Part shown: positions 12,564 to 45,396 of the stretch, piece by piece
Layout of the letters: every line of letters begins with the position of its first letter
How positions within the stretch are numbered: the stretch's first letter is position 1
Assembly: GCA_963205105.1 (NCBI GenBank)
Contig: CAUJJW010000337.1
Span: forward strand, 5,909-69,908
DNA: 64,000 nucleotides
Source of the DNA: Verrucomicrobiota bacterium
GTDB lineage: Bacteria > Verrucomicrobiota > Verrucomicrobiia > Limisphaerales > CAIMTB01
Reading direction: 5' to 3'
Made by a program: the position numbers and the translations under genes
Notes under the pieces: model-generated
Databases searched by the model: none
Seen by the model: only the letters and a program-made list of their open reading frames with translations
Told to the model about the DNA's origin: nothing

Positions 12564-13397
12564 TCAGTCGGGGCAGCCGAGTTGGCGAAGGGCATCGGCG
12601 AGCTGTGCCGGGCTGGGAGACTTGTAATGCCACGCCAGCTGATCCTGCATGAAGTCGACGCCGCGCCCCTTGGTGGTGTGGGCGATGAGGCAGGAAGGAC
12701 GGCCGGGTTCCCAGGGGACGGTTTCGAGAGCGTCCCGAATGGCGTTGTGGTCATGGCCAGCGACCTCGCGGACGGCCCAGCGGAAGGCGCGGAACTTGTC
12801 GGCGAGCGGGTGGAGTTCGGCGACCTCGGCAACGGAGCCGAGGCTTTGGATTTTGTTGTAGTCGACGAGGGCGACCAGGTTGTCGAGGCGATGTTGGGGG
12901 GCGAGCAGGATGGCTTCCCAATTGGAACCCTCGTCGAGTTCGCCGTCGCTGAGCAGGGTGAAGACGCGCCAGGGTTTGCGATCGCGTTGAGCGGCGAGGG
13001 CTTTGCCGAGTCCGAAGGGAAGGCCGTGTCCGAGAGAACCGGTACTGAACTCGACGCCGGGAACCTTGTGGCTGATGTGGGCCATGAGGCGGGAGCCGTC
13101 CTGGCCGTAAGTCGCGAGTTCGCTTTCAGGGAAAAAGCCGCGGAGGGCGAGCGTGGCGTAGACGGCGGTGCAGCTGTGTCCCTTGCTCAGGAGGAAACGA
13201 TCTCGATCGGGCCAATCGGGCTGATCCGGGCGGTGACGAAGGACGCCGGAGTACAGCACGGCGAGCAGATCGGCCATCGAGAGGGCGCCTGCGACATGGG
13301 AAGCCTTGGCGCGGGTGACCATGCGCAGGGCATGGGCGCGAATGGCGGCGGCGAGGTCGACACTGGAGCGAATGGTTGGGGCAGGTTCTGTGCGCAC
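12564..13397 (-). CDS. Transketolase, N-terminal (ThDP-binding) subunit
   Basis: 'RDRFLLSKGH', 'GSLGHGLPFGLG', 'LLSDGELDEGSNWEA', 'VDYNKIQ'. The ORF track starts at 13571, but 13402-13474 is a REP repeat, so I propose GTG 13397. The start is uncertain. Confidence 0.75.
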   Translation of the reverse strand: MRTEPAPTIRSSVDLAAAIRAHALRMVTRAKASHVAGALSMADLLAVLYSGVLRHRPDQPDWPDRDRFLLSKGHSCTAVYATLALRGFFPESELATYGQDGSRLMAHISHKVPGVEFSTGSLGHGLPFGLGKALAAQRDRKPWRVFTLLSDGELDEGSNWEAILLAPQHRLDNLVALVDYNKIQSLGSVAEVAELHPLADKFRAFRWAVREVAGHDHNAIRDALETVPWEPGRPSCLIAHTTKGRGVDFMQDQLAWHYKSPSPAQLADALRQLGCPD

Positions 13398-13401
13398 GGT
13401 T

Positions 13402-13474
13402 ACTGAACCGGGTGGCCCGCCGGGCGAGACGCCCGACTCTACGGCAGGCGGGACGCCCACCGCTACCGAGGGTA
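13402..13474. repeat. REP-like double-hairpin unit
   Basis: 'cgggcgagacgcccg.ctctacggcaggcgggacgcccaccgctac' ending in 'ggttcatgg'. Same family as 30716-30780 and 45316-45382. Confidence 0.8.
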
Positions 13475-23113: not shown

Positions 23114-24316
23114 TCAAACCTCGCCGATGTGGTGGATCGCTTCCTGGGCGACGGTGGCGCCGATGGCGAGGGAGGCGGTGGCAGCGGGGGACGGGGCGTT
23201 GCAGATGTGGATCACGTTGCCGTCGATGCGGATGTCGAAGTCGTCGAGCAAACGGCCTTCCCGGTCACAGGCCTGGGCTCGAATCCCCGCTCCGCCGGGG
23301 TCGAGGTCGGCGGCGGTGATGTCGGGGATGAGGCGTTGAAGGGCCCGGACAAAGGCGGCCTTGCTCCAGGATCGGCGGAATTCGCCGAGTCCGGTGCGCC
23401 AGTATTTGCGGGCGACGATGCGAAATCCGGGCCAGGCGAGGGTTTCGAGAGTGTCGCGGAGGTGGAAGTCCGTTTTCCGATAAGCTTCCCGACCAAAGGC
23501 GAAGACGGCGTTGGGGCCGCATTCGATACCGCCACGGATCATCCGGGTGAAGTGGACGCCCAGGAAGGGGAAGGCGGGGTCTGGAACGGGGTAAATGAGG
23601 TTGCGGACGAGATGATGGGCGGCGGGTTTGAGCACGTAATACTCGCCGCGGAAGGGTGTGATGCGCAGCGGCAGGTCGGGATGGGTGAGGCGGGCCACCC
23701 GATCGGAGTGCAGGCCGGCACAGGTGACGAGCACCCGGCCGGTCCAGGTGCGATGGGCACTGGCCACCTCGATGGCGGTGTCCTTGCGGCGGATGGCTTC
23801 GATGCGTTGTCCAAAGATGATCTCTCCGCCGAGTTCGCGGATTTTATCGGCGTACTTTTCCGCCACGGCGGTGTAGTCGACGATGCCGGTTTGGGGGACC
23901 CAGAGGCCCTGGATGCCGGTGCAATGGGGTTCGATCTCGCGGATTTCGGCGGAGGAGAGGGTACGGAGGCCGGCGAGACCGTTGGCTTCGCCGCGGCGCT
24001 GGAGTTCGGCGAGGCGGGGCAGTTCGGATTCGGAAGTGGCGACCACGATTTTGCCGCAGAGATCATGGGGGATGCCTTCCTTGCGGCAGAAGTCGATGAG
24101 TTGCTGGTAGCCGGTGCGGCAGTTGGCGGCTTTGAGTGAGCCGGGCTTGTAGTAGAGGCCGGAGTGGATGACGCCGCTGTTGTTGCCGGTTTGGTGCCGG
24201 GCGGGGGCGGGTTCCTTTTCGATCAGAACGAGCCGTGTGGCCGGGCGGCATTGGAGGAGGCGAAAGGCGGTGGCGAGACCGACGATGCCGCCGCCGACGA
24301 TGAGGACATCAGTCAT
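23114..24316 (-). CDS. lhgO: FAD-dependent L-2-hydroxyglutarate oxidase/dehydrogenase
   Basis: 'DVLIVGGGIVGLATA', 'NSGVIHSGLYYKPGSLKA', ~400 aa. Confidence 0.8.
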   Translation of the reverse strand: MTDVLIVGGGIVGLATAFRLLQCRPATRLVLIEKEPAPARHQTGNNSGVIHSGLYYKPGSLKAANCRTGYQQLIDFCRKEGIPHDLCGKIVVATSESELPRLAELQRRGEANGLAGLRTLSSAEIREIEPHCTGIQGLWVPQTGIVDYTAVAEKYADKIRELGGEIIFGQRIEAIRRKDTAIEVASAHRTWTGRVLVTCAGLHSDRVARLTHPDLPLRITPFRGEYYVLKPAAHHLVRNLIYPVPDPAFPFLGVHFTRMIRGGIECGPNAVFAFGREAYRKTDFHLRDTLETLAWPGFRIVARKYWRTGLGEFRRSWSKAAFVRALQRLIPDITAADLDPGGAGIRAQACDREGRLLDDFDIRIDGNVIHICNAPSPAATASLAIGATVAQEAIHHIGEV

Positions 24317-24370
24317 GGGAGGGGGCGCTTTTCAAAATGAGGACACGGAGAGGGAGTATGTACCGCGGCG

Positions 24371-24598
24371 CAAGGAATGGAGCGGGCGGCCCTCATCCCG
24401 GCCTTCTCCCGGAGGGAGAAGGAGAAAATGCGCCGCGAGTTTCGAGGGGTTGAGCAAAGCGTTGGCTGGAACGAGTTGATGCGGCTCGCGCGGATGGGGT
24501 TTGAGCGCGGGACGACGGGTGGAGGCGCGACTCCCTCTCCCTCCGGGAGAGGGTCGGGGTGAGGGAGCCGGTTTGCATCCTCGCGATAGCTGGCATGG
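24371..24598. repeat. REP-like mosaic (hairpin modules R2 and R3)
   Basis: 'gagcgggcggccctcatcccggccttctcccggagggagaaggagaa' and 'gactccctctccctccgggagagggtcggggtgagggagcc'. Copies at 33511-33705, 43095-43285 and 44945-45135. Confidence 0.8.
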
Positions 24599-27554: not shown

Positions 27555-30407
27555 TTACTGGCCCCGAACGCGCCAGAAGCCGCTGGCCTGGCCCTGGTGG
27601 GCGGCGTCGGTGTCGCTGAGCGTGGAGCTGGTGCCGGTGGCGACGGCGCTGGTCACGTCGGACCAGGTGGGATCCGAGAGCCGGGCCTTGTACTGAAGCG
27701 CGTAGGTGTTGCCGGACACGCTGGTGAAGACCACGGAGAAGCCGTTGTTCTGACGGCTGACGTTGGTGATGCGCGGCGCAGGCGGGAGGATGGGACCGCC
27801 GGTCATGTCCTCGAGGGTCACCGCGTTGATGATGGGGTTCTTATCCGTGTAATGCTCGGTCGTCACGGCGTCGCCGCCGAGGGTTTGGATGATGACCGTG
27901 TCTTTAGCGGCGGTGAACTCGTAGATCACGGCGGCGGCCTGGGCGGGATTGTTGATCTCCCCCATGATTTCGAACGGGGCGAATTCGTCGGCGATGAGTT
28001 TGCCGTCGACGTAGACGTCCATACCGCGGGAGCAGCACTGTTCGCCGAACATCAGCTGCAGCTTGTATTTCCGGCCGACGACGAGGTTGGCGAGGGTGAT
28101 GTTGGCGCCGCCGCCGCCATGGCGGATGTTGCCGACGATGCGCTCGAGGTTGTTGTCATTCTCGGTTTCGCCGAAATCGGGGCGATACCACGCGGCGATC
28201 TGGGACGTGGCGTTGAGCACCCGGACGCCGGGCACGTTTTCGGAAGTGAACACCGCATCGCGCACTTTGCCGGTGGCGGCGGTGTTGGGGAGAATGCTGA
28301 ACGCGTAGAGGAAGGAGCCGTCGAGATCGAGGCCTTCACCGGCGTCGCCGCCCGTGAAGCCGGCGATGGTCACACCTGCGGTCACGGTCTCGATCGCCGG
28401 GTTGTTCGGATTGCTGCCCATGGCGATTTCAAAAGCATCCGAGAGCAGGTCGTCATCGGAGTCGGCCTTGAGCGGATTGGTCTTGTGCGTGTTGATTTCG
28501 GCGCTGTCGGAGAGCCCGTCGCGGTCGGAGTCGGCGAGGCCCGGTTTGGTGCCGGCAGCTTTCTCCTGGCTGTCGGAGAGTCCGTCACCGTCCGCGTCGG
28601 CTTTGCCGGGATGGGTGCCGTCGGCAAACTCGGTGGCGTTGGAAAGCGTGTCGCCGTCGGTGTCCTGGGTGCCGGTCTGGCCGAGGTTGCCAAAGTAGCC
28701 TGTTTCCCACAGGTCGGGCAGGCCGTCGCCGTCAGTGTCTGCGGCGGGACCGATGCGCTCGAGGGTCGAGGCGTTGATGATGGCGTTGTGGTCGGTGAAC
28801 TCCGGCGTGGTGGTGGTGGTGCCGTCCACGATGAAGCGCAGGCTGGTGGCGCGGGCCACGAACTCGTGGGTGATCACGACGCCCCTATTGTCCGGATACG
28901 CGAGTGGGAAGCCGCCGCCCTGGTAGTACGTGGGGCTGAAGTCGTCCATGACCAGAATGTCGTCGATGTAGACGTCAAACCCGCGGGGCCAGGCCTGTTC
29001 GGCAAAGAGCAATTGGAGTTTGTAAACCGTGCCGACCGTAAGGTTTCCGAGTTCGACGGTCGCATCCGGGATGGCAGTCCCCGCGGCACTCCAGGTGATG
29101 GAGCTCATGACATCGGCGAGGGTGATGTCGTTTTGGGTGTCGCCGTAAACGATGTCGCTGTTCCACATGCCAGTGCGGTTGCCGGCGGTCACGGTCACGC
29201 CCTCGACCGGTTCCGGAGTGAAGTTGGCATCGCCCACGGGGCCGCCTTGCACTTCTTCGACGCCATGATCCAGGGCGTAGACAAAAGTTCCCTGCAAATC
29301 CAGGCCTTCGCCCGCATCGCCACCGGTGAACAGGCTCACCTTGGTGTTGCGAGGCACGCTGGTAGCCAAGGTCGGATCGGTGAGCAGTCGCACTTCGTCG
29401 AAGTCGGAGAAGGTGTCGCCATCGGTGTCGCGCTTGGTCGGATCCGACTTGTGGGTGAGAACTTCGTCTCCGTCACGCAGGCCATCACCGTCGGAATCCG
29501 TTTTGGCCGGATCCGTCTTATGGGTGTTGCGTTCGGCGCCGTCGGAGAGACCGTCGCCGTCCGTGTCGCTGTTGGACGGGTTGAGCTGGAGGGTGAATTC
29601 CTCGCCGTTGGTCAGGCCGTCGCTGTCGAAATCGCCGGCTGGGGTCTGGGAGGTGTCGCCGAAGAACGAGGATTCCCAGTCATCGCGCAGGCCGTCGTTG
29701 TCGACATCGGTGAAGGGGCTGAGGCGTTCCAGGGTGAACCCGTTGAGGATGGCGTTGCGGTCGGTGATCTCCTCGGAAGGAGCGGCGGGGCCGCTGAGCA
29801 CGAGCACGAGGTTGTTGGTGGCGGCGGTGAACTGGTAAGTGACCACCGCGCCCTGGATCCGCTTTTCGGTGGCAAAATCACCGCCGGGCGACTGCAACAC
29901 GCCGGGCATGAAGTTTTCAGCGAGCAGTTCGTCGTTGAGGGTGATGTTGAAGCCGCGGCCGGGGCAGCAGTCTTCGCCCTGCAGCACCTGCAGCTTGTAT
30001 TCCACCCCGCGTTCCACACGCATCTGGACGGTGACCACGGCCGGAGCGCCGGACCACCGGATGGAGGCCAGCACGGCTTCCAGGTTGTTGTCGTTTTCGG
30101 TTTCACCGAAATCGGCGGCGAGCCAGCCGCCCGTGCCGATATTGTTTTGGGCGTCCACGGTGACGCCGACGATGTTGTCGGCGGTGAAGTTGGCGTCGCC
30201 GACTTTGCCGACGGCGCCGTTGGGGCCGACGTTGACGGCGTAGGTGAAGTTGCCCTGCATATCGAGACCTTCACCGGGATCGCCGCCGGTGAAGATACCG
30301 ACGGTGGGGGTGGCGCCCCAGGCACTGGAAGCCGTGAGGGCGGCGAGTGCGAGAAGCGGGGCAACGTAGGAACGGGATCGAGTGCGATGGCGGTTATGTC
30401 TCAGCAT
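27555..30407 (-). CDS. Secreted protein with three malectin-like carbohydrate-binding modules separated by thrombospondin type-3 Ca-binding repeats
   Basis: Signal peptide. Three ~190-aa repeats ('FTGGD.GEGLD..G.F.YA', 'YKLQL.F.E...RG.DV'). 'DTDGDGLSD'-type repeats. C-terminal 'YALQYKARLSDPTW...FWRV'. Confidence 0.8.
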   Translation of the reverse strand: MLRHNRHRTRSRSYVAPLLALAALTASSAWGATPTVGIFTGGDPGEGLDMQGNFTYAVNVGPNGAVGKVGDANFTADNIVGVTVDAQNNIGTGGWLAADFGETENDNNLEAVLASIRWSGAPAVVTVQMRVERGVEYKLQVLQGEDCCPGRGFNITLNDELLAENFMPGVLQSPGGDFATEKRIQGAVVTYQFTAATNNLVLVLSGPAAPSEEITDRNAILNGFTLERLSPFTDVDNDGLRDDWESSFFGDTSQTPAGDFDSDGLTNGEEFTLQLNPSNSDTDGDGLSDGAERNTHKTDPAKTDSDGDGLRDGDEVLTHKSDPTKRDTDGDTFSDFDEVRLLTDPTLATSVPRNTKVSLFTGGDAGEGLDLQGTFVYALDHGVEEVQGGPVGDANFTPEPVEGVTVTAGNRTGMWNSDIVYGDTQNDITLADVMSSITWSAAGTAIPDATVELGNLTVGTVYKLQLLFAEQAWPRGFDVYIDDILVMDDFSPTYYQGGGFPLAYPDNRGVVITHEFVARATSLRFIVDGTTTTTPEFTDHNAIINASTLERIGPAADTDGDGLPDLWETGYFGNLGQTGTQDTDGDTLSNATEFADGTHPGKADADGDGLSDSQEKAAGTKPGLADSDRDGLSDSAEINTHKTNPLKADSDDDLLSDAFEIAMGSNPNNPAIETVTAGVTIAGFTGGDAGEGLDLDGSFLYAFSILPNTAATGKVRDAVFTSENVPGVRVLNATSQIAAWYRPDFGETENDNNLERIVGNIRHGGGGANITLANLVVGRKYKLQLMFGEQCCSRGMDVYVDGKLIADEFAPFEIMGEINNPAQAAAVIYEFTAAKDTVIIQTLGGDAVTTEHYTDKNPIINAVTLEDMTGGPILPPAPRITNVSRQNNGFSVVFTSVSGNTYALQYKARLSDPTWSDVTSAVATGTSSTLSDTDAAHQGQASGFWRVRGQ

Positions 30408-30580
30408 ACGGGTTTCGGGATGTCGATGGAGCCGCTCCTTTTGTGGACATGAGAAACCTTTCCCGTGTCAGGAACCTGAGCGGCCAGTGGTAAGGCGTCG
30501 TGATGACACGGATGAATTTTCACTGCAAACGAAAACCCTGGTTTCGCTTGGATTGGGGTCTGGTGGGGGGGCGACGGAGA

Positions 30581-30967
30581 GCAATCGGTTCGAAATGGAT
30601 CTGCTCACCGATCATGAAACCGGGGGAGGCGGGGGGATTACGATGACGATGAGGAGTAGGAGTACGTGGACGAGGGGAGGCGCGATTCATTAATCGCGCA
30701 TGGGGACCATGAACCGAGGATTCCGGGGGGCGAGACGCCCCCCTCTACGGCAGGCGGGACGCCCGCCGCTACGGAGGCCCGGAGGGGCGATCAGAATCGA
30801 CCGCGGTGGGGTTGGTATTTAGCGGAACGCAGGATGTTCTGCCCGCCCCTGCTTTTCTGATCGCCCCTCCGGGGCTTCTGGTTTCCTTCGGGCCTTGTCC
30901 CCACGGCTCACGCCGTGGGCTCGTGCTCTTCCGCCCCGTCCGGGGCTGGGAAATCGAAGTTCATGGG
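30581..30967. repeat. REP-like mosaic, including a ~210-bp composite colinear with 45175-45396
   Basis: Modules 'ttcgaaatggatctgctcacc', 'aggagtaggagtacg', 'gattcattaatcgcgc' and the GTAG double hairpin at 30716-30780. Further hairpin-rich sequence runs to 'gttcatggg' at ~30960. Confidence 0.75.
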
Positions 30968-30980
30968 CTGCCCTTCGACC

Positions 30981-32006
30981 TCAGGTCAGGGCGGTGGACG
31001 TCGATTCCTCCGAGGCTGACGACGGTGGAATGTCGGCGCTGAGATGGCGCTGGTCGCGGGCGCGGAGGAGTACGTGGGCGGCCCAGGCGATCGTGAACAG
31101 GCAACAACCGGCGACGACCATGGCGCCGGCGATTGAGCAGTCGAGCCAGAGGGCGAGATGGAGGCCGACGACGGTGCTGATGGCGGAGTGAACGACGATG
31201 AGGGTGAAGAGGGTGGGCAGGCGTGCGGCGACCAGGGAAGCGGTGGCGCCGGGGACGATGAGCATGGCGATGACGAGGATGGCGCCGACGGATTCGAAGG
31301 CGCTGACGACGACCACCGACAACCAGCCCATGAGCAGGAGATGGACCGTAGGGGCGTGGATGCCGAGGGAGGTGGCCAGACCGGCGTCGAAGGAACTGAT
31401 CACGAGTTCCTTGTAGAACAGGAGGGTGGCGAGAACGGTGAGCAGGGTCACCACGGCCATGCGGGTGACGGGGACGGGGCCAAGGGGAATGCCAAAGGCG
31501 GTGAGGGTGGGCTGGAAGGGGACGAACCCGATTTCACCGTACAACACGCAATCGGCATCCAGGTCCACGTGGTCGGCGAAGAGCGTGATCAGCACGACGC
31601 CGATGGCGAAGAGAGTGGCGAAGACGATGCCGATGGCGGCGTCCTGCTTGATGCGGGAGCGGCGGTGGAGCATGCCGATGAGCAGGGTGGTGATCCAACC
31701 GGCTCCGATGGCGCCCACGAGCATGACGGACGAATCGCGGGCGGCGTGGCTGGAGTCGGTGCGTTGACCGAACAGAAACGAGGCGACGAGGAAGGCGGTG
31801 GCGAGGCCTGGGAGAATGCTATGGCTGATGGCGTCGCCCATGAGCGCCATGCGTCGGAGGAGGAGATGTTGCCCCACCCAGCCGCAGGCGACGCTGGTCA
31901 GGAAACCCATGAGGAGGATCCAGCCCTTTTCGGGGAAATCGGTGGTCCACGGGTCGATCAGGACGGACCGGATGTCGAAGGGAGGGATGAGGTCGGCGAG
32001 ATTCAT
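30981..32006 (-). CDS. Metal (Mn/Zn/Fe) ABC transporter permease, second permease (YtgD/TroD-like)
   Basis: 'LLLRRMALMGDAISHSILPGLA' and multiple TM segments of the ABC-3 family. Confidence 0.85.
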   Translation of the reverse strand: MNLADLIPPFDIRSVLIDPWTTDFPEKGWILLMGFLTSVACGWVGQHLLLRRMALMGDAISHSILPGLATAFLVASFLFGQRTDSSHAARDSSVMLVGAIGAGWITTLLIGMLHRRSRIKQDAAIGIVFATLFAIGVVLITLFADHVDLDADCVLYGEIGFVPFQPTLTAFGIPLGPVPVTRMAVVTLLTVLATLLFYKELVISSFDAGLATSLGIHAPTVHLLLMGWLSVVVVSAFESVGAILVIAMLIVPGATASLVAARLPTLFTLIVVHSAISTVVGLHLALWLDCSIAGAMVVAGCCLFTIAWAAHVLLRARDQRHLSADIPPSSASEESTSTALT

Positions 32007-32015
32007 GGGCGCGGA

Positions 32016-33467
32016 TCAACGGCCATAGCCGGCGGGTGGGCGGCGGGTGGCCTCGACGGGGCCTGCGGCCAGGACGGCGTTGGGGGTGGGGATGGGTCGG
32101 CCGTGGGGGTCGGTGTCCGCGTAGTTCAGGCGTCGCTCGAGTTCGCGAACCACATCCTCGCCGAGCACGTGCTCAATGCGTTCGGCGTCCTCATGGACGT
32201 GGTCGGCGGGGATATGGGCGGCGTGGGTGAGGTAGAGCTCCCACAGGCGATGATTGCGGACGAGTTCGATGGCGCGTTGGCGTCCCACGGGGGTGAGGAG
32301 CACGCAAGGGTCGGCGGCGTGGAACGTGGCAAATCCGTGGCGGACGAGGTCTCTGGCCTGGCGGCTGGCGTCCTCGATGGTTTCGCGGCGGCGCTGGGCC
32401 AATTCGCGGAGGGAGACTCCTTCGCCGTGGAACTGGCGGTCCTCGAGAATGCGGTAGACGGTTTTGAGGGTGTTTTCGCGGCGGACGCGGCCGGCGTTGG
32501 AGCGTTGATTCCACCAGCGGGTAACGAGGCCATGGCGGGGGGCGAACAAAAAGGCCGCGGTGAACAGTGCGCTTCCTGAGAGGACCATGAGGGGGCCGGT
32601 GGGCAGGTTGCTGCCGAGGAAGGACAGGAAGCAGCCCATCGCTCCGGACACGAGGCCGATGACCGCGGCGTAGAGCAGCATGCGGTGCATGCGGTCGGTG
32701 AGCAGGTAAGCGGCGGCGGCGGGGGTGATGAGCATGGCGGACACGAGCACGACGCCGACCGCCTGGAGGGCGGAGACGACCGAGAACGCGAGCAGCAGCA
32801 TCAGGGCGTAGTGAATGATGCGGACGGGGTAACCGATGGAGCGGGCGAAGGCGGCGTCGAAGCTGGCGACGAGCAGTTCCTTGTAGAAGACCAGGACGGT
32901 GCTGATGGCAAGAACCGCGACCACGGCCATGAGTTGGAGGTCACGCGGGCCGATGGCGGCAGCCTGACCGAAGAGGAATTTGTCGATGCCGCTTTTGGCG
33001 CCGGTGGGGAGTCGCTGGATCATGGTGACCAGGCAGATGCCCACGGCGTAGAACCCGGCGAGTACGAGTCCGAGGGCGGCGTCCTCCTTGAGGCGGGTGG
33101 TTTGCTTGATCCCTTCGACGACGATGGTGCCCAGGAGGCCGGCGATGACGGCACCGATGAAGATGGCGAGGGGATCCTTGGTTTGGCTCCACAAAAACCC
33201 GGCGGCGACTCCCGGGAGTACGGCGTGGGAAAGGGCGTCGCCGACCAGGGCGAGGCGGCGCACGACGAGGAACGCGCCGAGCAGGCCGCAGGAAATGCCG
33301 AGGAGCATGGACCCGGCGAGGGCGTAGCGCACCGCGGGATCGCGGAGGGTGAGGAAGCGAAGCGCCTGATCGCGGATCGAGTTGTCGGTGAGTTCACCGA
33401 TTTTGGCGGCGTTCGCGGCGGGCGCGATGAGCGCGGCGAGAATGAAGAGGAGGAGGAAGGTGAACAA
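32016..33467 (-). CDS. Metal ABC transporter permease fused to a C-terminal DtxR/MntR-type repressor domain (YtgC-YtgR-like)
   Basis: Permease core 'VVRRLALVGDALSHAVLPG', then 'HRLWELYL...HEDAERIEHVL...DPHGRPIP'. The upstream ~120 codons of the ORF call are REP repeats. The proposed TTG start at 33467 is tentative. Confidence 0.75.
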   Translation of the reverse strand: MFTFLLLFILAALIAPAANAAKIGELTDNSIRDQALRFLTLRDPAVRYALAGSMLLGISCGLLGAFLVVRRLALVGDALSHAVLPGVAAGFLWSQTKDPLAIFIGAVIAGLLGTIVVEGIKQTTRLKEDAALGLVLAGFYAVGICLVTMIQRLPTGAKSGIDKFLFGQAAAIGPRDLQLMAVVAVLAISTVLVFYKELLVASFDAAFARSIGYPVRIIHYALMLLLAFSVVSALQAVGVVLVSAMLITPAAAAYLLTDRMHRMLLYAAVIGLVSGAMGCFLSFLGSNLPTGPLMVLSGSALFTAAFLFAPRHGLVTRWWNQRSNAGRVRRENTLKTVYRILEDRQFHGEGVSLRELAQRRRETIEDASRQARDLVRHGFATFHAADPCVLLTPVGRQRAIELVRNHRLWELYLTHAAHIPADHVHEDAERIEHVLGEDVVRELERRLNYADTDPHGRPIPTPNAVLAAGPVEATRRPPAGYGR

Positions 33468-33485
33468 CGTGGACGTTCGGCTCGC

Positions 33486-33824
33486 GGACCATGAACCGGG
33501 GTGCGAGGAGTCGAGCGGGCGGCCCTCATCCCGGCCTTCTCCCGGAGGGAGAAGGAGAACATGCGCCGCGGGTTTCGGAGGGTCGAGCTGAGCGTTGGCT
33601 GGAACGGGTCGCCACAGCTCGGATGGTTGGGGTTTAGGCGTGTTGCGGAGGGTAGCGCGCGACTCCCTCTCCCTCCGGGAGAGGGTTGGGGTGAGGGAGC
33701 CTGTTTCAACCCTCGCGACGGCTCGCATGGGAAGCCCCCTGTTCGAAATCGACCTGCTCACGGACCAGGCACCAGGGATTCCGGGGGGCGAGACGCCCGC
33801 CGCTACGGAGTTGCGGTTCATGGG
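33486..33824. repeat. REP-like mosaic inserted between the ATPase and the permease-repressor gene
   Basis: Order R2, R3, spacer module, GTAG hairpin, bounded by 'ggaccatgaacc' and 'ggttcatgg'. The ytgB-like stop codon lies inside the terminal motif. Confidence 0.85.
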
Positions 33825-34627
33825 ATGGAACCCCCGTGCTGGCGGACGGCGTCGGCGACCTCGCTGAGGATGGTGAGTCGGCCGCCGTAGGTTTTCTGGA
33901 GCAGTTCGTAGGTGAACACCTCGTCGGTGGGACCAAAGGCGACGCGCCTCAGGTTGAGCAGCAGGAGCATGTCGAAGTAATTGCGGGCGGTCGGGAGGTC
34001 GTGATGAACCACGAGGATGGTGCAGCCCCGGTCGCGCAACTCGTGCAAGAGCGTGACGATGGCCGCCTCGGTGGCGGCGTCGACCCCGGCGAAGGGTTCG
34101 TCCATGAAGTACAGGTCGCTCTCCTGGGCGAGTGCCCGGGCCAGGAAGACGCGTTGCTGCTGGCCTCCGCTCAGGTTGGCGATCTGCCGATTGGCGTAAG
34201 GCAGCATGCCCACTTTGTCCAGGCAGGCGCGGGCGATGTCGCGGTCGGCGCGGGAAGGTCGGCGGAACAGGCCGATTTTTCCGTAGCGCCCCATCAGAAC
34301 GACATCCATGACGCTGACCGGGAAATCCCAGTCGACGGATTCGCGTTGGGGCACGTAACCGACACGGCGATGGGCGCGGGAAAGTGGTGCGCCGAAGATC
34401 CGCACCCAGCCGCCGGCGATGGGAGTGACGCCCATGCAGGCCTTGATGAGGGTGGATTTTCCAGCGCCGTTGGGCCCGATGATGCCGACGAGCTTTCCGG
34501 CGGGCACCGCGAGGTCGACGCCCCAGAGCACGGGGCGGCGATGGTAGGCGACCGTCAGGTCATGGATCTCCAGCGGCGGGGGTGTCTCGGGTGTGGCCGT
34601 GGGCGGCGTTGGAGGCGGGGCGGTCAC
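33818..34627 (-). CDS. Metal ABC transporter ATP-binding protein (YtgB/TroB/ZnuC-like)
   Basis: Walker A 'GPNGAGKST', signature 'LSGGQQQRV', Walker B 'LYFMDEP'. ATGA overlap with the binding-protein gene. Confidence 0.9.
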   Translation of the reverse strand: MTAPPPTPPTATPETPPPLEIHDLTVAYHRRPVLWGVDLAVPAGKLVGIIGPNGAGKSTLIKACMGVTPIAGGWVRIFGAPLSRAHRRVGYVPQRESVDWDFPVSVMDVVLMGRYGKIGLFRRPSRADRDIARACLDKVGMLPYANRQIANLSGGQQQRVFLARALAQESDLYFMDEPFAGVDAATEAAIVTLLHELRDRGCTILVVHHDLPTARNYFDMLLLLNLRRVAFGPTDEVFTYELLQKTYGGRLTILSEVADAVRQHGGSIP

Positions 34628-35541
34628 TTGAGTGATTCGACGACCGTGTTGACGTTGTGACGGAGCATGCCGGTGTAGGTGCCCACATCATAGGACTCAC
34701 CGCCGACCTTTCGCACATCGCCGGGTTGGCCCAGTGCGTCGGAGAACAATTCACCGCCCACGCGGGCGCCGGAGTCCCGGCTGATGCGTTCGATGGCTGC
34801 CGGAGAAACGCTGCTCTCGATGAAGAGAGCCTTGAGCTTACGGGAGCGGACCAGGTCGGCGACCTTGGTGATGTCGGCGAGGCCGGCCTCCGAAGCGGTG
34901 GAGATTCCCTGAACGCCGACGACTTCGAAACCGAAAGCGCGTCCGAAGTAGTTGAACGCGTCGTGGCTGGTGATCAGGACCCGTTGATCCTTGGGGATCT
35001 CGGCCACACGGGCTTCGGCCCAGGTGCGGAGTTTGTCGAATTTGGCTTCGAGATCCTGAAGCCGGGTCTGGTAGCCGGCGGTGCCACCGGGATCCACTTC
35101 ACCCAGGCCGCGGGCGACGGTGCGAGCGGCGATTTTCCAGAGGGCGGGATCACCCCAGACGTGGGGGTCGGCGTGTCCGTCGGACTGGCTGGGTTGGATG
35201 AGGGACTCGTGGGGGATGTCGGCGGTGACGGCGAACACCTTGCGGCGGGACGTGGCGAGGCGTTTGAAGAGATCCTCCATGCGGCCTTCGAGGAAGAGGC
35301 CGGAATAGAAGACGGCTTCGGCGCGGGAAAGGCGGGTGACGTCGCGGGCGGAGGCTTTGTAAAGGTGGGGGTCGACGCCCGGGCCCATGAGGGCTTCGAC
35401 GGTGACCCGGTCTCCGCCGATTTGCTGCACCAGGTCGGCGACGAGGGTGGTGGTGGCGACGACAGGAATGGCGGCGTGGGCGGAGGCCGCGCCGAGGGCG
35501 ATCACGATGCCGGCGAGGAAGGACCTGAATTGGGAAAGCAT
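34624..35541 (-). CDS. Metal ABC transporter substrate-binding protein (cluster A-I, YtgA/TroA/ZnuA-like)
   Basis: Signal peptide, 'VDPHLY', 'DPHVW', 'SHDAFNYF' motifs. Confidence 0.9.
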   Translation of the reverse strand: MLSQFRSFLAGIVIALGAASAHAAIPVVATTTLVADLVQQIGGDRVTVEALMGPGVDPHLYKASARDVTRLSRAEAVFYSGLFLEGRMEDLFKRLATSRRKVFAVTADIPHESLIQPSQSDGHADPHVWGDPALWKIAARTVARGLGEVDPGGTAGYQTRLQDLEAKFDKLRTWAEARVAEIPKDQRVLITSHDAFNYFGRAFGFEVVGVQGISTASEAGLADITKVADLVRSRKLKALFIESSVSPAAIERISRDSGARVGGELFSDALGQPGDVRKVGGESYDVGTYTGMLRHNVNTVVESLK

Positions 35542-35636
35542 GGGTGATGGGGCTGCGGTGGCGTTGGCTGGGTGAAGGACAGGGCCCCCAGCCGAGGCGA
35601 CGGTAGCCAGTCCGCGCGCACCCGCAAGGCAAATTT

Positions 35637-35665
35637 AGTATCACCTACAATTTTAAGGTGAGACT
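35637..35665. promoter_or_regulatory. Candidate metalloregulator operator in the ytg-like promoter region
   Basis: Inverted repeat AGTATCACCT-N9-AGGTGAGACT (9/10 match) inside the only AT-rich patch of the 153-bp region upstream of the operon start (35541). Confidence 0.4.
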
Positions 35666-35694
35666 GAAAATGTGGGGCGGTGCGGCGGGGGGTG

Positions 35695-36792
35695 TCAGTC
35701 GGTCGTGGCTTGGGCAGGGGCGGGGGCCGGGGCCGCGGCCTTGGTTGCGGTCGCGGCGACGGCGGCGGCATAGGACTCGGCGAGCCGGCCGACGAGGGCG
35801 CGGTCGGCGGTGATGCCTGCGGATTCGAGGGCCAGGGCGGCGGCACCGAGCAGCGGGGCGAGGAGCATGGGTTCGAAGGTGACGGGGATTTCGTCGCGCA
35901 TGGTGCGGTAGACCGATTCCTGGACGACGGTGTTTTTGCTGACGACGGAGCCGTTGAGCCAGACGGGGACGGGTCGGATGCGGAGGTCGACGAGGCGGAT
36001 GGCGGCGAGGGCCTGGCGGGCGAGGTCCTGGCCGGCGCGCTGGCAGATATCGATCCAGAGGGCATCGCCGGGGTCGGCGTGTTGGGCGGCGTAACCGGCG
36101 AGGGCTGCGAAGCGGTCCTTGGAGTATTTCGGCTGGTAGATGATGGGGACGATATCGTTGAGCACTTTGACATCGAACCAGCGGAGGACGATGTCGAGGA
36201 GGCAGGTGGCGGGGCCGGAGCCTTCGGAAGCGGCGATGGCGGCGCGGATGCATTCGCGACCGATCCAGTAGGCGCTGCCTTCATCGCCGAGCAGGTGGCC
36301 CCAGGCGCCGACCTGGGCGAATTCGCCGCGTTCGTTACGGGCGAGAAAGCTGGAGCCGGTGCCGCCGACGATGAGGACGCCGGGTTGGCCGAGGCTGGCG
36401 GCGTGGTAGGCGGTCATGACATCGCTGACGAGGCGGGTGGCTTCGAGGGGGACGATGCCGCGGCAGAGCATTTCCTTTTCGCGATGGGTGGCTTCGGAGA
36501 AGAGGGCGGCGCTGCCGATGACGGTATGGACGAGGCGATTGCCGAGGGGGAGGTTGGTTTCGAGGGTGCGGACGAGCTGGGTGAGGCTGCGGCGGGCTTC
36601 CTGGAGGGAGGTGCCGAAGAAATTGAGGGAACCGGATTTGGCGGTGGCGAGGGCCTGGCCGTTGAAGTCGACGGCGACGCCGTAGCTGTAGGTGGCGCCT
36701 CCGTCGATGCCGATGATGACTGGGGTGGCGTGGGGATCCTCGATGAGGAGGCCGGAGCCCGGGGCAAGGGCGGGGGTGGGATCGGGGGCCAT
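35695..36792 (-). CDS. BadF/BadG/BcrA/BcrD-type ATPase (N-acetylglucosamine kinase-like)
   Basis: 'IIGIDGGATYS' phosphate-1 motif and 'LIVGGTGS' of the ASKHA fold. Confidence 0.65.
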   Translation of the reverse strand: MAPDPTPALAPGSGLLIEDPHATPVIIGIDGGATYSYGVAVDFNGQALATAKSGSLNFFGTSLQEARRSLTQLVRTLETNLPLGNRLVHTVIGSAALFSEATHREKEMLCRGIVPLEATRLVSDVMTAYHAASLGQPGVLIVGGTGSSFLARNERGEFAQVGAWGHLLGDEGSAYWIGRECIRAAIAASEGSGPATCLLDIVLRWFDVKVLNDIVPIIYQPKYSKDRFAALAGYAAQHADPGDALWIDICQRAGQDLARQALAAIRLVDLRIRPVPVWLNGSVVSKNTVVQESVYRTMRDEIPVTFEPMLLAPLLGAAALALESAGITADRALVGRLAESYAAAVAATATKAAAPAPAPAQATTD

Positions 36793-42900: not shown

Positions 42901-43320
42901 TGGTTCATGGAGAGTCCCCTGTTCGAAATCGACCTGCTCACGGCCCTTGAACCCGGGATTCCGGGGGGCGGGACGCCCCCCTCTACGGCAGGCGAGACGC
43001 CCCCCGCTACGGAGGCGCGGTTCATGGAGAGGAGCGTTTTCCAAGAATTGGACACGTATTGGGACCATGAACGGTGGAGCGAGGAATGCAGCGAGCGGCC
43101 CTCACCCCGGCCCTCTCCCGGAGGGAGAGGGAGAATAGTTCCCGCGGGTTTCGAAGGGTTGGGCCGGGTGTTGGCTGGAACAAGTCGTGTCGGCTCGGAC
43201 GGTTGGATTTCTGGCATGTCGCCGTGCGGGATATGCGGCTCCCTCTCCCTCCGGGAGAGGGTTGGGGTGAGGGTGCCCGTTTCACCCCCCGCGACGGCTT
43301 CCTGGGTGAGCTTCATGGGG
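42901..43320. repeat. REP-like mosaic
   Basis: Spacer module, GTAG double hairpin (42956-43016), R2 and R3, delimited by 'ggttcatgg', 'gaccatgaac' and 'cttcatgggg'. The stop of 43313..43933 lies in the last motif. Confidence 0.85.
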
Positions 43321-44820: not shown

Positions 44821-45396
44821 CCATGAACTGGAGATTCCGGTGGGCGGGACGCCCGCCGCTACGGATGACCGGTTGATGGGTAGGAGCGTTTGCCAAAACT
44901 TGGACACGTATGAGGGCCATGAACCGAGGAGCGAGGAATGCAGCGAGCGGCCCTCACCCCGGCCCTCTCCCGGTGGGAGAGGGAGAAAACGCTCCGCGGA
45001 TTTCGAAGGGCCAAGCCGAGCGTTGGCTGGTGCGGTTGGCGACGGCTCTGAAGGACGGGGTTCAGGCCTGTCGCCGAGGGCAGGACGCGACACCCTATCC
45101 CCCCGGGAGAGGGTTGGGGTGAGGGAGCCGGCTTCAACCCTCGCGATAGCTTGCATGGGTAGGTTCATGGTAAGTCCACTGCTCGAAACCGACCTGCTTA
45201 CGGACCATGAACCTGGGGAGGCGGGCGGAATACGATTAGGAGTAGGAGTACGATGACGAGGGGAAGGCAGGTTCATGGAGAGGCCCCACGATTCACGAAT
45301 CGCGCATTGGGACCATGAACCCGGGATTCCGGGGGGCGAGACGCCCCCCTCCACGGCAGGCGGGACGCCCGCCGCTACGGAGGCGTGGTGCATGGG
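44821..45396. repeat. Largest REP-like mosaic (fills the whole intergenic region)
   Basis: Half hairpin unit 44833-44868, R2, R3, then a ~210-bp composite ending with the GTAG double hairpin at 45316-45382. Confidence 0.85.

Follow-up and report, generated by a model that had tools for sequence, protein, structure and literature searches.

A YtgCR-like permease-repressor fusion in a TroABCD/YtgABCD-type metal import operon of a Verrucomicrobiota bacterium

The closest described systems to the operon considered here are the tro operon of Treponema pallidum and the ytg operon of Chlamydia (CT067-CT070; CTL0325). In T. pallidum, the importer genes follow the A-B-C-D order and the DtxR-family repressor TroR, a short protein that lacks the SH3 domain, is encoded by a separate gene of the operon, downstream of troD. 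In Chlamydia, the repressor forms the C-terminal part of a permease, YtgCR. The C-terminal fragment of YtgCR is released in C. trachomatis and upon expression in Escherichia coli (PMC7755916; PMC5599777). The isolated 139-residue repressor domain of C. trachomatis represses and binds DNA, and cleavage, Fe-dependent DNA binding and autorepression together form the chlamydial precedent (PMC5599777; PMC6504234; PMC7755916). Orthologous permease-repressor fusions in 11 bacterial phyla are attributed to Thompson et al. 2012 in a passage of a 2017 review (PMC5599777). Here, an operon of this type is described from a window of 64,000 nucleotides, which is the whole stretch of DNA that was analysed (assembly GCA_963205105.1, contig CAUJJW010000337.1, positions 5,909 to 69,908). 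The host is a Verrucomicrobiota bacterium and the operon encodes a TroABCD/YtgABCD-type (cluster A-I) ATP-binding cassette (ABC) importer for a divalent transition metal, one permease of which continues into a DtxR-type module.

The operon comprises four closely packed genes on the minus strand, between positions 35541 and 30981, with the following genes and domains:

34624..35541, minus strand: periplasmic metal-binding protein (cluster A-I, TroA/YtgA-like), 305 aa, PF01297 ZnuA (E 7e-76)
33818..34627, minus strand: ABC transporter ATPase, 269 aa, PF00005 (E 1e-26)
32016..33821, minus strand: fused permease-repressor gene (YtgCR-like), a single open reading frame (ORF) of at most 601 codons
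32544..33332, minus strand: ABC-3 permease domain of the fused gene (ORF residues 164-426), PF00950 (E 4e-68)
32478..32543, minus strand: junction or linker APRHGLVTRWWNQRSNAGRVRR, from the last membrane helix to repressor helix 1
32088..32477, minus strand: predicted two-domain DtxR-family module (winged helix-turn-helix and metal-binding/dimerisation), PF02742 (E 8e-25 to 7e-24)
30981..32006, minus strand: second ABC-3 permease (YtgD/TroD-like), 341 aa, PF00950 (E 1e-44), without a repressor domain

All parts of a cluster A-I importer are thereby present (PF01297, PF00005 and two copies of PF00950). The start of the ATPase gene overlaps the stop of the binding-protein gene, and its own stop overlaps the ATG of the fused ORF. 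The initial annotation of this DNA had proposed the order binding protein, ATPase, permease, permease, with the first permease ORF running on into a DtxR-type domain, and the ORFs and their Pfam domains bear out both proposals. Within the ORF 33821-32016, the ABC-3 domain is followed by PF02742 (Fe_dep_repr_C; residues 510-579) with no stop codon between them, and the peptide singled out by the initial annotation (HRLWELYLTHAAHIPADHVHEDAERIEHVLGEDVVRELERRL...DPHGRPIP) is located in the same frame. Neither this ORF nor its homologs from independent assemblies, which are fused as well, show a stop or frameshift that would part permease from repressor, the finding named there as what would overturn the fusion.

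These homologs are numerous. A protein search with the fused protein returned >5,000 relatives, and in the 120 listed ones that were inspected PF00950 and PF02742 occur together in every case (120/120; 65-98% identity, 468-566 aa, most of them 470-540). Their records bear the names Verrucomicrobiales, Verrucomicrobiota or Roseimicrobium, or else the JGI product name ‘ABC-type Mn2+/Zn2+ transport system permease subunit/Mn-dependent DtxR family transcriptional regulator’. When GTDB genomes were scanned, one for each species, 468 related loci emerged. In each of the best 80, which were examined, the match extends at least as far as query residue 451 of 486, inside the repressor domain, and in most as far as 463 or beyond; at one of them (L074) it is cut by a contig end. 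Nearly all of these 80 are labelled Verrucomicrobiota (Limisphaerales/Pedosphaera, Chthoniobacterales, Opitutaceae, Methylacidiphilales and Verrucomicrobiales), with a few records of metagenome-assembled genomes (MAGs) labelled otherwise. The nearest two are Verrucomicrobiota/Limisphaerales MAGs at 90% identity, in agreement with the earlier attribution to a free-living-type genome of the Planctomycetes-Verrucomicrobia-Chlamydiae (PVC) superphylum. Wherever the contig allows, the related loci show the order binding protein, sometimes one extra gene, ATPase, fused permease and second permease, and the fused gene is followed by the second permease in all of those whose contig extends that far. 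Environmental Chlamydiota loci likewise keep the order binding protein, ATPase, fused permease, second permease.

Two side observations concern these loci. Among the MAG records with a verrucomicrobial fused gene, several bear the label Akkermansia muciniphila, Klebsiella or Chitinophaga pinensis (e.g. L006, L025, L027, L038), and since their proteins are 66-70% identical to Verrucomicrobiota proteins, they look like mislabelled or contaminated bins. The extra gene, which separates the genes for binding protein and ATPase in most of the related operons of Verrucomicrobiota, was read by eye as an OprB-like outer-membrane porin; it lies at about 1850-3172 in L004, with equivalent gaps of 1-1.4 kb in most loci of L004-L080, and is found neither in the window nor in its two closest relatives, L001 and L002.

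By its sequence and predicted structure, the C-terminus of the fused protein is a putative two-domain DtxR-family metalloregulator. A search of the Protein Data Bank (PDB) with the last 177 residues returned first the metal-dependent transcriptional regulator 5zr4 (E 4e-16), whose sister entry 5zr6 is titled manganese-dependent transcriptional repressor, and then IdeR, DtxR and SloR, the alignments taking in both the DNA-binding and the dimerisation subdomains (DtxR/IdeR residues ~12-136). In an AlphaFold model of the fused protein, built with 46 homologs as input, the repressor part has a block-mean predicted local distance difference test (pLDDT) score of about 78-95 and superposes on Deinococcus radiodurans DR2539 and on two-domain IdeR with a target template modelling (TM) score of 0.79-0.84 and a root-mean-square deviation of 1.8-2.2 Å over about 133 residues. 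The predicted DNA-binding subdomain folds as a helix, a strand, two helices and a two-strand wing, and superposes on DNA-bound IdeR and DR2539 at 1.8-2.4 Å. Aligned to IdeR, the domain-2 metal ligands His79, Glu83, His98, Glu105 and His106 are kept (five of six) and Cys102 is replaced by Glu, these positions being invariant or nearly so in the 46 homologs. The same ligand pattern, including the Glu at the Cys102 position, is found in chlamydial YtgR.

While the module shares its predicted winged-helix and dimerisation fold and its ligands with DtxR, IdeR, MntR, SloR and DR2539, it differs from them in being fused to a membrane protein, in the exchanges of Cys102 for Glu and of Met10 for Asn, in escaping the Pfam helix-turn-helix model PF01325, and in having no SH3-like third domain of the kind present in DtxR, IdeR, SloR and ScaR, the protein ending 23 residues after DPHGRPIP. 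This third domain is not needed for membership of the DtxR family, as two-domain DR2539 and the Bacillus subtilis-type MntR entries (139-148 aa) are also without it. Fused clusters from other lineages (P0188, P0211, P0236 and P0237, one of them named ‘Deltaproteobacteria bacterium’/‘bacterium HR37’) are 80-100 residues longer, and seem to have retained the third, SH3/FeoA-like domain that full-length DtxR possesses.

The permease part of the model, where confidence is low to moderate, most closely resembles the PsaC permease of the Streptococcus pneumoniae Mn importer PsaBCA (7kyp; Foldseek E 9e-12, 34-37% identity over aligned columns). PsaC, however, is a homodimer without a regulator domain, whereas the window has two permease genes, one of which is fused. 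The region joining the two parts was compared in a MAFFT alignment of 64 fused proteins, namely the window protein, four from Chlamydiae and 59 full-length proteins, each representing a cluster at 50% identity. From LPTGP through to ENxLK, 62 of the 64 show no insertions or deletions (indels). The linker has a fixed length of 22 residues, and the junction pattern of P-x-x-G, 17 residues and E-N/H-x-L-K is common to Chlamydiae, Verrucomicrobiota, Bacteroidota and the other fused clusters.

The likeness to chlamydial YtgC-YtgR, to which the initial annotation pointed, holds over both domains as well as the junction. With chlamydial sequences taken from Supplementary Data 5 of PMC7755916, BLASTP aligned the window protein to C. 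trachomatis L2 YtgCR in one collinear segment (residues 58-463 against 20-442; 30% identity, E 2e-61), and to Protochlamydia YtgCR collinearly over both domains (32% identity, E 3e-66). Shared with the chlamydial system are the gene order, the combination of an ABC-3 permease with a two-domain DtxR-like module that lacks SH3, the junction of equal length, the Glu in place of DtxR Cys102, and the motifs HRLWE and DPH..PIP. When the repressor domain alone was searched against 1.8 billion representatives, 119 of the best 150 at 50% identity were fused (58 full-length proteins and 61 fragments with permease-side sequence), and clear stand-alone DtxR proteins appeared only from about 86 bits. Together with the indel-free junction, these fused nearest relatives speak for a single ancient fusion and against convergence. 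The window protein belongs to the YtgCR family in both sequence and architecture.

The differences from the chlamydial proteins are nonetheless considerable. Overall identity is only 30-34%. The window protein adds an N-terminal signal-like segment and an extension of ~30 residues that Chlamydiae lack, and the binding protein is far nearer to TroA than to YtgA: among solved structures, T. pallidum TroA (1toa) is the best match (E 1e-62) and C. trachomatis YtgA (6nsi) is farther (E 4e-24). This binding protein has a signal peptide-like N-terminus, and its DPH, DPHVW, SHDAF and FSDA motifs, which hold the His-His-His-Asp ligands of TroA, all align with TroA. The window operon thus resembles TroABCD-TroR in its binding protein, the ligand motifs, the A-B-C-D order and a short DtxR-type repressor lacking SH3, and departs from it in that the repressor, a separate gene downstream of troD in T. 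pallidum, is the C-terminus of the TroC-like permease. The tryptophan-sensing WWW motif is also not present at the aligned permease position, where the window has VLVFY and C. trachomatis VLWWWY. As this motif is specific to Chlamydiaceae and poorly conserved outside (PMC7755916), its lack leaves membership of the YtgCR family unaffected. A tryptophan pair in the linker (TRWWNQ) was considered as its counterpart and rejected, because the WWW motif belongs to the permease domain and lies at a different aligned position. Finally, cleavage and Fe-dependence have been shown in Chlamydia only.

Upstream of the binding-protein gene, two regulatory elements can be proposed:

35630..35653, minus strand: candidate operator, imperfect palindrome AAATTGTAG-GTGATA-CTAAATTTG, 3 nt upstream of a -35-like hexamer
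35600..35627, minus strand: putative promoter, TTGCGG (35627-35622), 16-nt spacer, TACCGT (35605-35600), from conservation

The palindrome reads in full AAATTGTAGGTGATACTAAATTTG (35630-35653). In related loci, the consensus AAAGTTAG-N6-CTAACTTT is found ahead of the binding-protein gene, with 3-6 nt separating it from a downstream -35-like TTGAC/TTGC hexamer. A symmetric weight matrix was built from 30 strict TTAG-N6-CTAA sites upstream of this gene in related Verrucomicrobiota loci, with the window copy excluded. Under this matrix, the window palindrome scores 18.0, the best in the 64 kb, and the next best site 10.8; 47 of 63 upstream regions of relatives score above 14, and control regions inside the fused gene at most 6.1. 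The promoter spacing TTGCnn-16 nt-TAnnnT recurs in seven relatives (L001, L002, L031, L040, L051, L052 and L065). The GTTAG/CTAAC half-sites of the operator equal the inner half-sites of the IdeR/DtxR box TTAGGTTAGGCTAACCTAA; in that box, however, they stand 1 bp apart, compared with 6 bp in the verrucomicrobial palindrome. Verrucomicrobiota thereby give a clear candidate operator for binding assays. In environmental Chlamydiota (L162-L241), a conserved gene whose product ends ...GRYALRI.F.SGCS.GIYSFD... directly abuts the ytgA-like gene, and the promoter there is thus probably situated farther upstream than in Verrucomicrobiota.

Taken together, we consider it likely, with a probability of about 0.72, that the locus encodes a YtgCR-type importer whose fused repressor autoregulates the operon through this palindrome. 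In such a system, the binding protein would hand metal to the fused and the unfused permease, paired as a heterodimer, with import powered by the ATPase. Once cytoplasmic metal is sufficient, the DtxR-like domain would bind it through the conserved His and Glu ligands and dimerise, and the metal-loaded dimer would bind the palindromic operator abutting the -35 box and so repress its own operon. Since DNA binding by DtxR-family proteins takes a dimer and each transporter holds one repressor domain, proteolysis probably sets the domain free, as with C. trachomatis YtgR, or else two complexes would pair. For this fused domain we infer the metal, the repression, the cleavage and the binding of the palindrome; cleavage and metal-dependent DNA binding of the window protein, in particular, would follow the chlamydial precedent by analogy.

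Several observations weigh against this picture. PF01325 gives no match to the repressor module even at an E of 10 and the putative recognition helix, ETIEDASRQARD, carries acidic residues, so that the DNA-binding subdomain draws its support from the PDB alignments and the predicted fold and from no family model. The palindrome is situated upstream of the -35 hexamer and not over the -35/-10 region, and a separate regulator encoded outside the window could bind it. A strict sigma-70 consensus scan of 30700-35800 returned no promoter, with terminator-like matches at chance level, and the promoter is therefore assigned from conservation. The T[TA]AG-N6-CT[AT]A core was found in none of 69 environmental Chlamydiota loci within 350 nt upstream of the binding-protein gene, where perfect 5-mer inverted repeats were not enriched either; the operator is thus not demonstrably shared with Chlamydiae, in which it marks a further difference from the ytg operon. 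The TroA-type His-His-His-Asp ligands of the binding protein do not tell Zn, Mn and Fe apart, and a 276-nt insertion in the 5' end of the fused gene, described below, might, in this strain, alter how the fused protein is expressed or inserted into the membrane.

Other explanations differ from this one over the origin of the fusion or over the state in which its repressor domain would act. An artefact would arise if adjacent permease and separate DtxR/TroR-like repressor genes had been joined through an error in sequencing or assembly, or through a frameshift particular to the strain. The separate troR gene of T. pallidum offers a precedent for unfused genes, and two 152-aa database proteins, P0127 (MQRENTLK...) and P0128 (LKAIYHVLE...), begin at or just after the junction. 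Given the unbroken ORF, the fused state of 120 of 120 listed homologs and of the best 80 loci from independent assemblies, and the absence of junction indels from 62 of 64 proteins belonging to several phyla, the sequences leave such an artefact a negligible probability and exclude it for practical purposes. The two short proteins are 51-57% identical to the window repressor domain and could be stand-alone repressor genes, derived by fission of a fusion, or gene-call fragments. It could also be supposed that the verrucomicrobial and chlamydial fusions arose separately, each from a permease and a neighbouring repressor gene, which would make the window protein an analogue of YtgCR and not its orthologue. 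Repressor genes adjacent within the operon, such as troR, make repeated fusion plausible, and both the low overall identity to Chlamydiae and their failure to group with Verrucomicrobiota in the tree described below would fit; yet separate origins would have to account for a junction of identical length and shared motifs across Chlamydiae, Verrucomicrobiota, Bacteroidota and the other fused clusters, for a repressor domain closest to other fused domains and not to stand-alone repressors, and for the fusion of the first of the two permeases in every group, and we regard them as very unlikely.

The alternative with the most in its favour is that the repressor domain is never released. It would then act as a membrane-tethered repressor, with two complexes paired on the operator, or as a sensor that does not bind DNA and shuts the transporter by trans-inhibition, in the manner of the regulatory domains found at the C-terminus of some ABC importer ATPases. 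A linker of fixed length across phyla fits a constrained geometry between permease and domain better than a mere cleavage site, the missing PF01325 match and the unusually acidic recognition helix also count in its favour, and full-length YtgC, it has been noted, might also repress, like a membrane-anchored LacI (PMC5599777). Set against this are the release of the fragment in C. trachomatis and E. coli, the repression and DNA binding by the isolated 139-residue domain, the DtxR-box-like palindrome conserved at the operon promoter in Verrucomicrobiota, and the high-confidence winged-helix prediction that superposes on DNA-bound IdeR and DR2539. Overall, an unreleased domain seems unlikely. That the DtxR-like domain acts uncut in Verrucomicrobiota, as a tethered repressor or an importer-gating sensor, with the 22-residue linker serving as a mechanical coupling and not as a protease site, would be a little harder still to credit.

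The fusion arrangement is not specific to the PVC superphylum. With the same junction, it occurs in cultured Bacteroidota (Parapedobacter, Sphingobacterium, Chryseobacterium and Ekhidna, and also Thermoflexibacter), in Balneolales, and in the cluster of the ‘Deltaproteobacteria bacterium’ MAG/‘bacterium HR37’, taxon names having been obtained for one of ten distant fused clusters. The window protein is 39-41% identical to the fusions labelled Bacteroidota, Balneolales and Deltaproteobacteria, compared with 30-34% to those of Chlamydiae. In a neighbour-joining tree, a crude method here (Kimura distances over 419 columns, 200 bootstraps, computed with a numpy script), Verrucomicrobiota and Chlamydiae are each monophyletic (100%) and are not sisters, with all deeper nodes below 50% support. 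On these sequences, vertical inheritance within PVC is neither shown nor excluded. It does not follow, then, that the arrangement is ancestral to the PVC superphylum, as had been suggested, because the same fusion is found in Bacteroidota, Balneolales and a Deltaproteobacteria-labelled MAG and because Chlamydiae do not appear as the sister group in the tree. The accompanying suggestion that the fusion is no chlamydial peculiarity is right insofar as it exists outside Chlamydia, but it is not new, in view of the 11 phyla mentioned in that passage of PMC5599777 and of the JGI annotation.

The present locus is accordingly one more member of a widespread and already annotated fusion, which is common also in free-living Verrucomicrobiota and Bacteroidota. 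Having been published for Chlamydia and annotated by pipeline in environmental genomes, the permease-repressor fusion carries little weight as a discovery. The case for this bacterium as a tractable system is likewise weak, because cultured carriers of the fusion already exist. Of practical use is the homologous junction across Chlamydiota, Verrucomicrobiota and Bacteroidota, as it means that cleavage and regulation could be studied in cultured and genetically easier bacteria, such as Parapedobacter, Sphingobacterium or Chryseobacterium, instead of in an obligate intracellular pathogen.

As to the metal transported, Mn2+ appears the most likely and is weakly favoured on sequence features, with Fe2+ and Zn2+ also possible. 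The hints of Mn are the Glu at the Cys102 position of the repressor, which is typical of Mn-responsive DtxR members; the closest solved relatives, which include the manganese-dependent repressors 5zr4/5zr6 and DR2539; the Mn/Fe-type matches of the ATPase; and the OprB-like porin gene within the operon of most relatives. The top NCBIfam matches of the ATPase are the manganese/iron ABC ATPase NF011630 (E 1e-68) and Deinococcus MntA (E 2e-66), both under their equivalog cut-offs. No operon protein reached an NCBIfam equivalog cut-off, and the metal is thus not assignable from family models. The metal site of TroA itself is promiscuous for Zn, Mn and Fe.

The 5' end of the fused gene, and other parts of the window, contain copies of a dispersed repeat, and a segment shared with homologs lies downstream of the 276-nt insertion:

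33505..33780 (about), minus strand: 276-nt in-frame repeat-derived segment in the 5' end of the fused gene, absent from locus L081
33398..33476, minus strand: signal-peptide-like hydrophobic segment ending A-N-A, then AKIGEL, downstream of the insertion
33410-33808 (inside the fused gene), 24277-24576, 42986-43285 and 44838-45137: copies of the dispersed repeat family
42906-42988, 45166-45248, 45274-45356, 30672-30778 and 13366-13472: shorter modules of the same family

The repeat family is GC-rich and about 300 bp long, with two hairpin-forming cores of the CCCTCTCCCGGAGGGAGAGGG type and flanking GGCGAGACGCCCGCCGCTACGG modules. A copy makes up the first ~115 codons of the 601-codon ORF, as compared with the 470-540 residues of most homologs. 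Locus L081 (P0001) encodes a 98%-identical protein and itself lacks exactly these 276 nt, which in the window are free of stop codons and flanked by an imperfect 22-nt direct repeat. Since the 5' end is built of repeat, the start codon is uncertain, with ATG 33821, GTG 33761, ATG 33728 and TTG 33467 as candidates. On a small scale, the in-frame insertion illustrates how a coding region can tolerate a mobile repeat. In homologs (the first 30, and the consensus of 46 aligned), the N-terminus consists of a hydrophobic stretch and a small-x-small motif, followed by (A/E/D)(K/R)I(G/A/S)(E/D). An amphipathic stretch after A-x-A, AKIGEL...ALRFLTLRDP, is conserved in the verrucomicrobial fused permeases (P0001-P0120), and neither it nor the signal-like segment has a counterpart in the chlamydial YtgCR sequences aligned. 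The hydrophobic segment could either be cleaved or form an extra transmembrane helix.

Beyond the operon, positions 27555-30407 (minus strand, downstream) encode a 950-aa secreted-looking protein with three internal repeat units of ~320 residues and runs of D-x-D-G-D calcium-binding-type repeats, without evident link to the metal operon. An Rfam scan of 30000-36500 gave only sub-threshold matches, with no riboswitch and specifically no Mn riboswitch among them. One such match, to the Acido-Lenti-1 RNA (positions 30900-30947, plus strand; 31.7 bits against a gathering threshold of 37, E 2.6e-4), lies on the opposite strand, just past the operon's 3' end.

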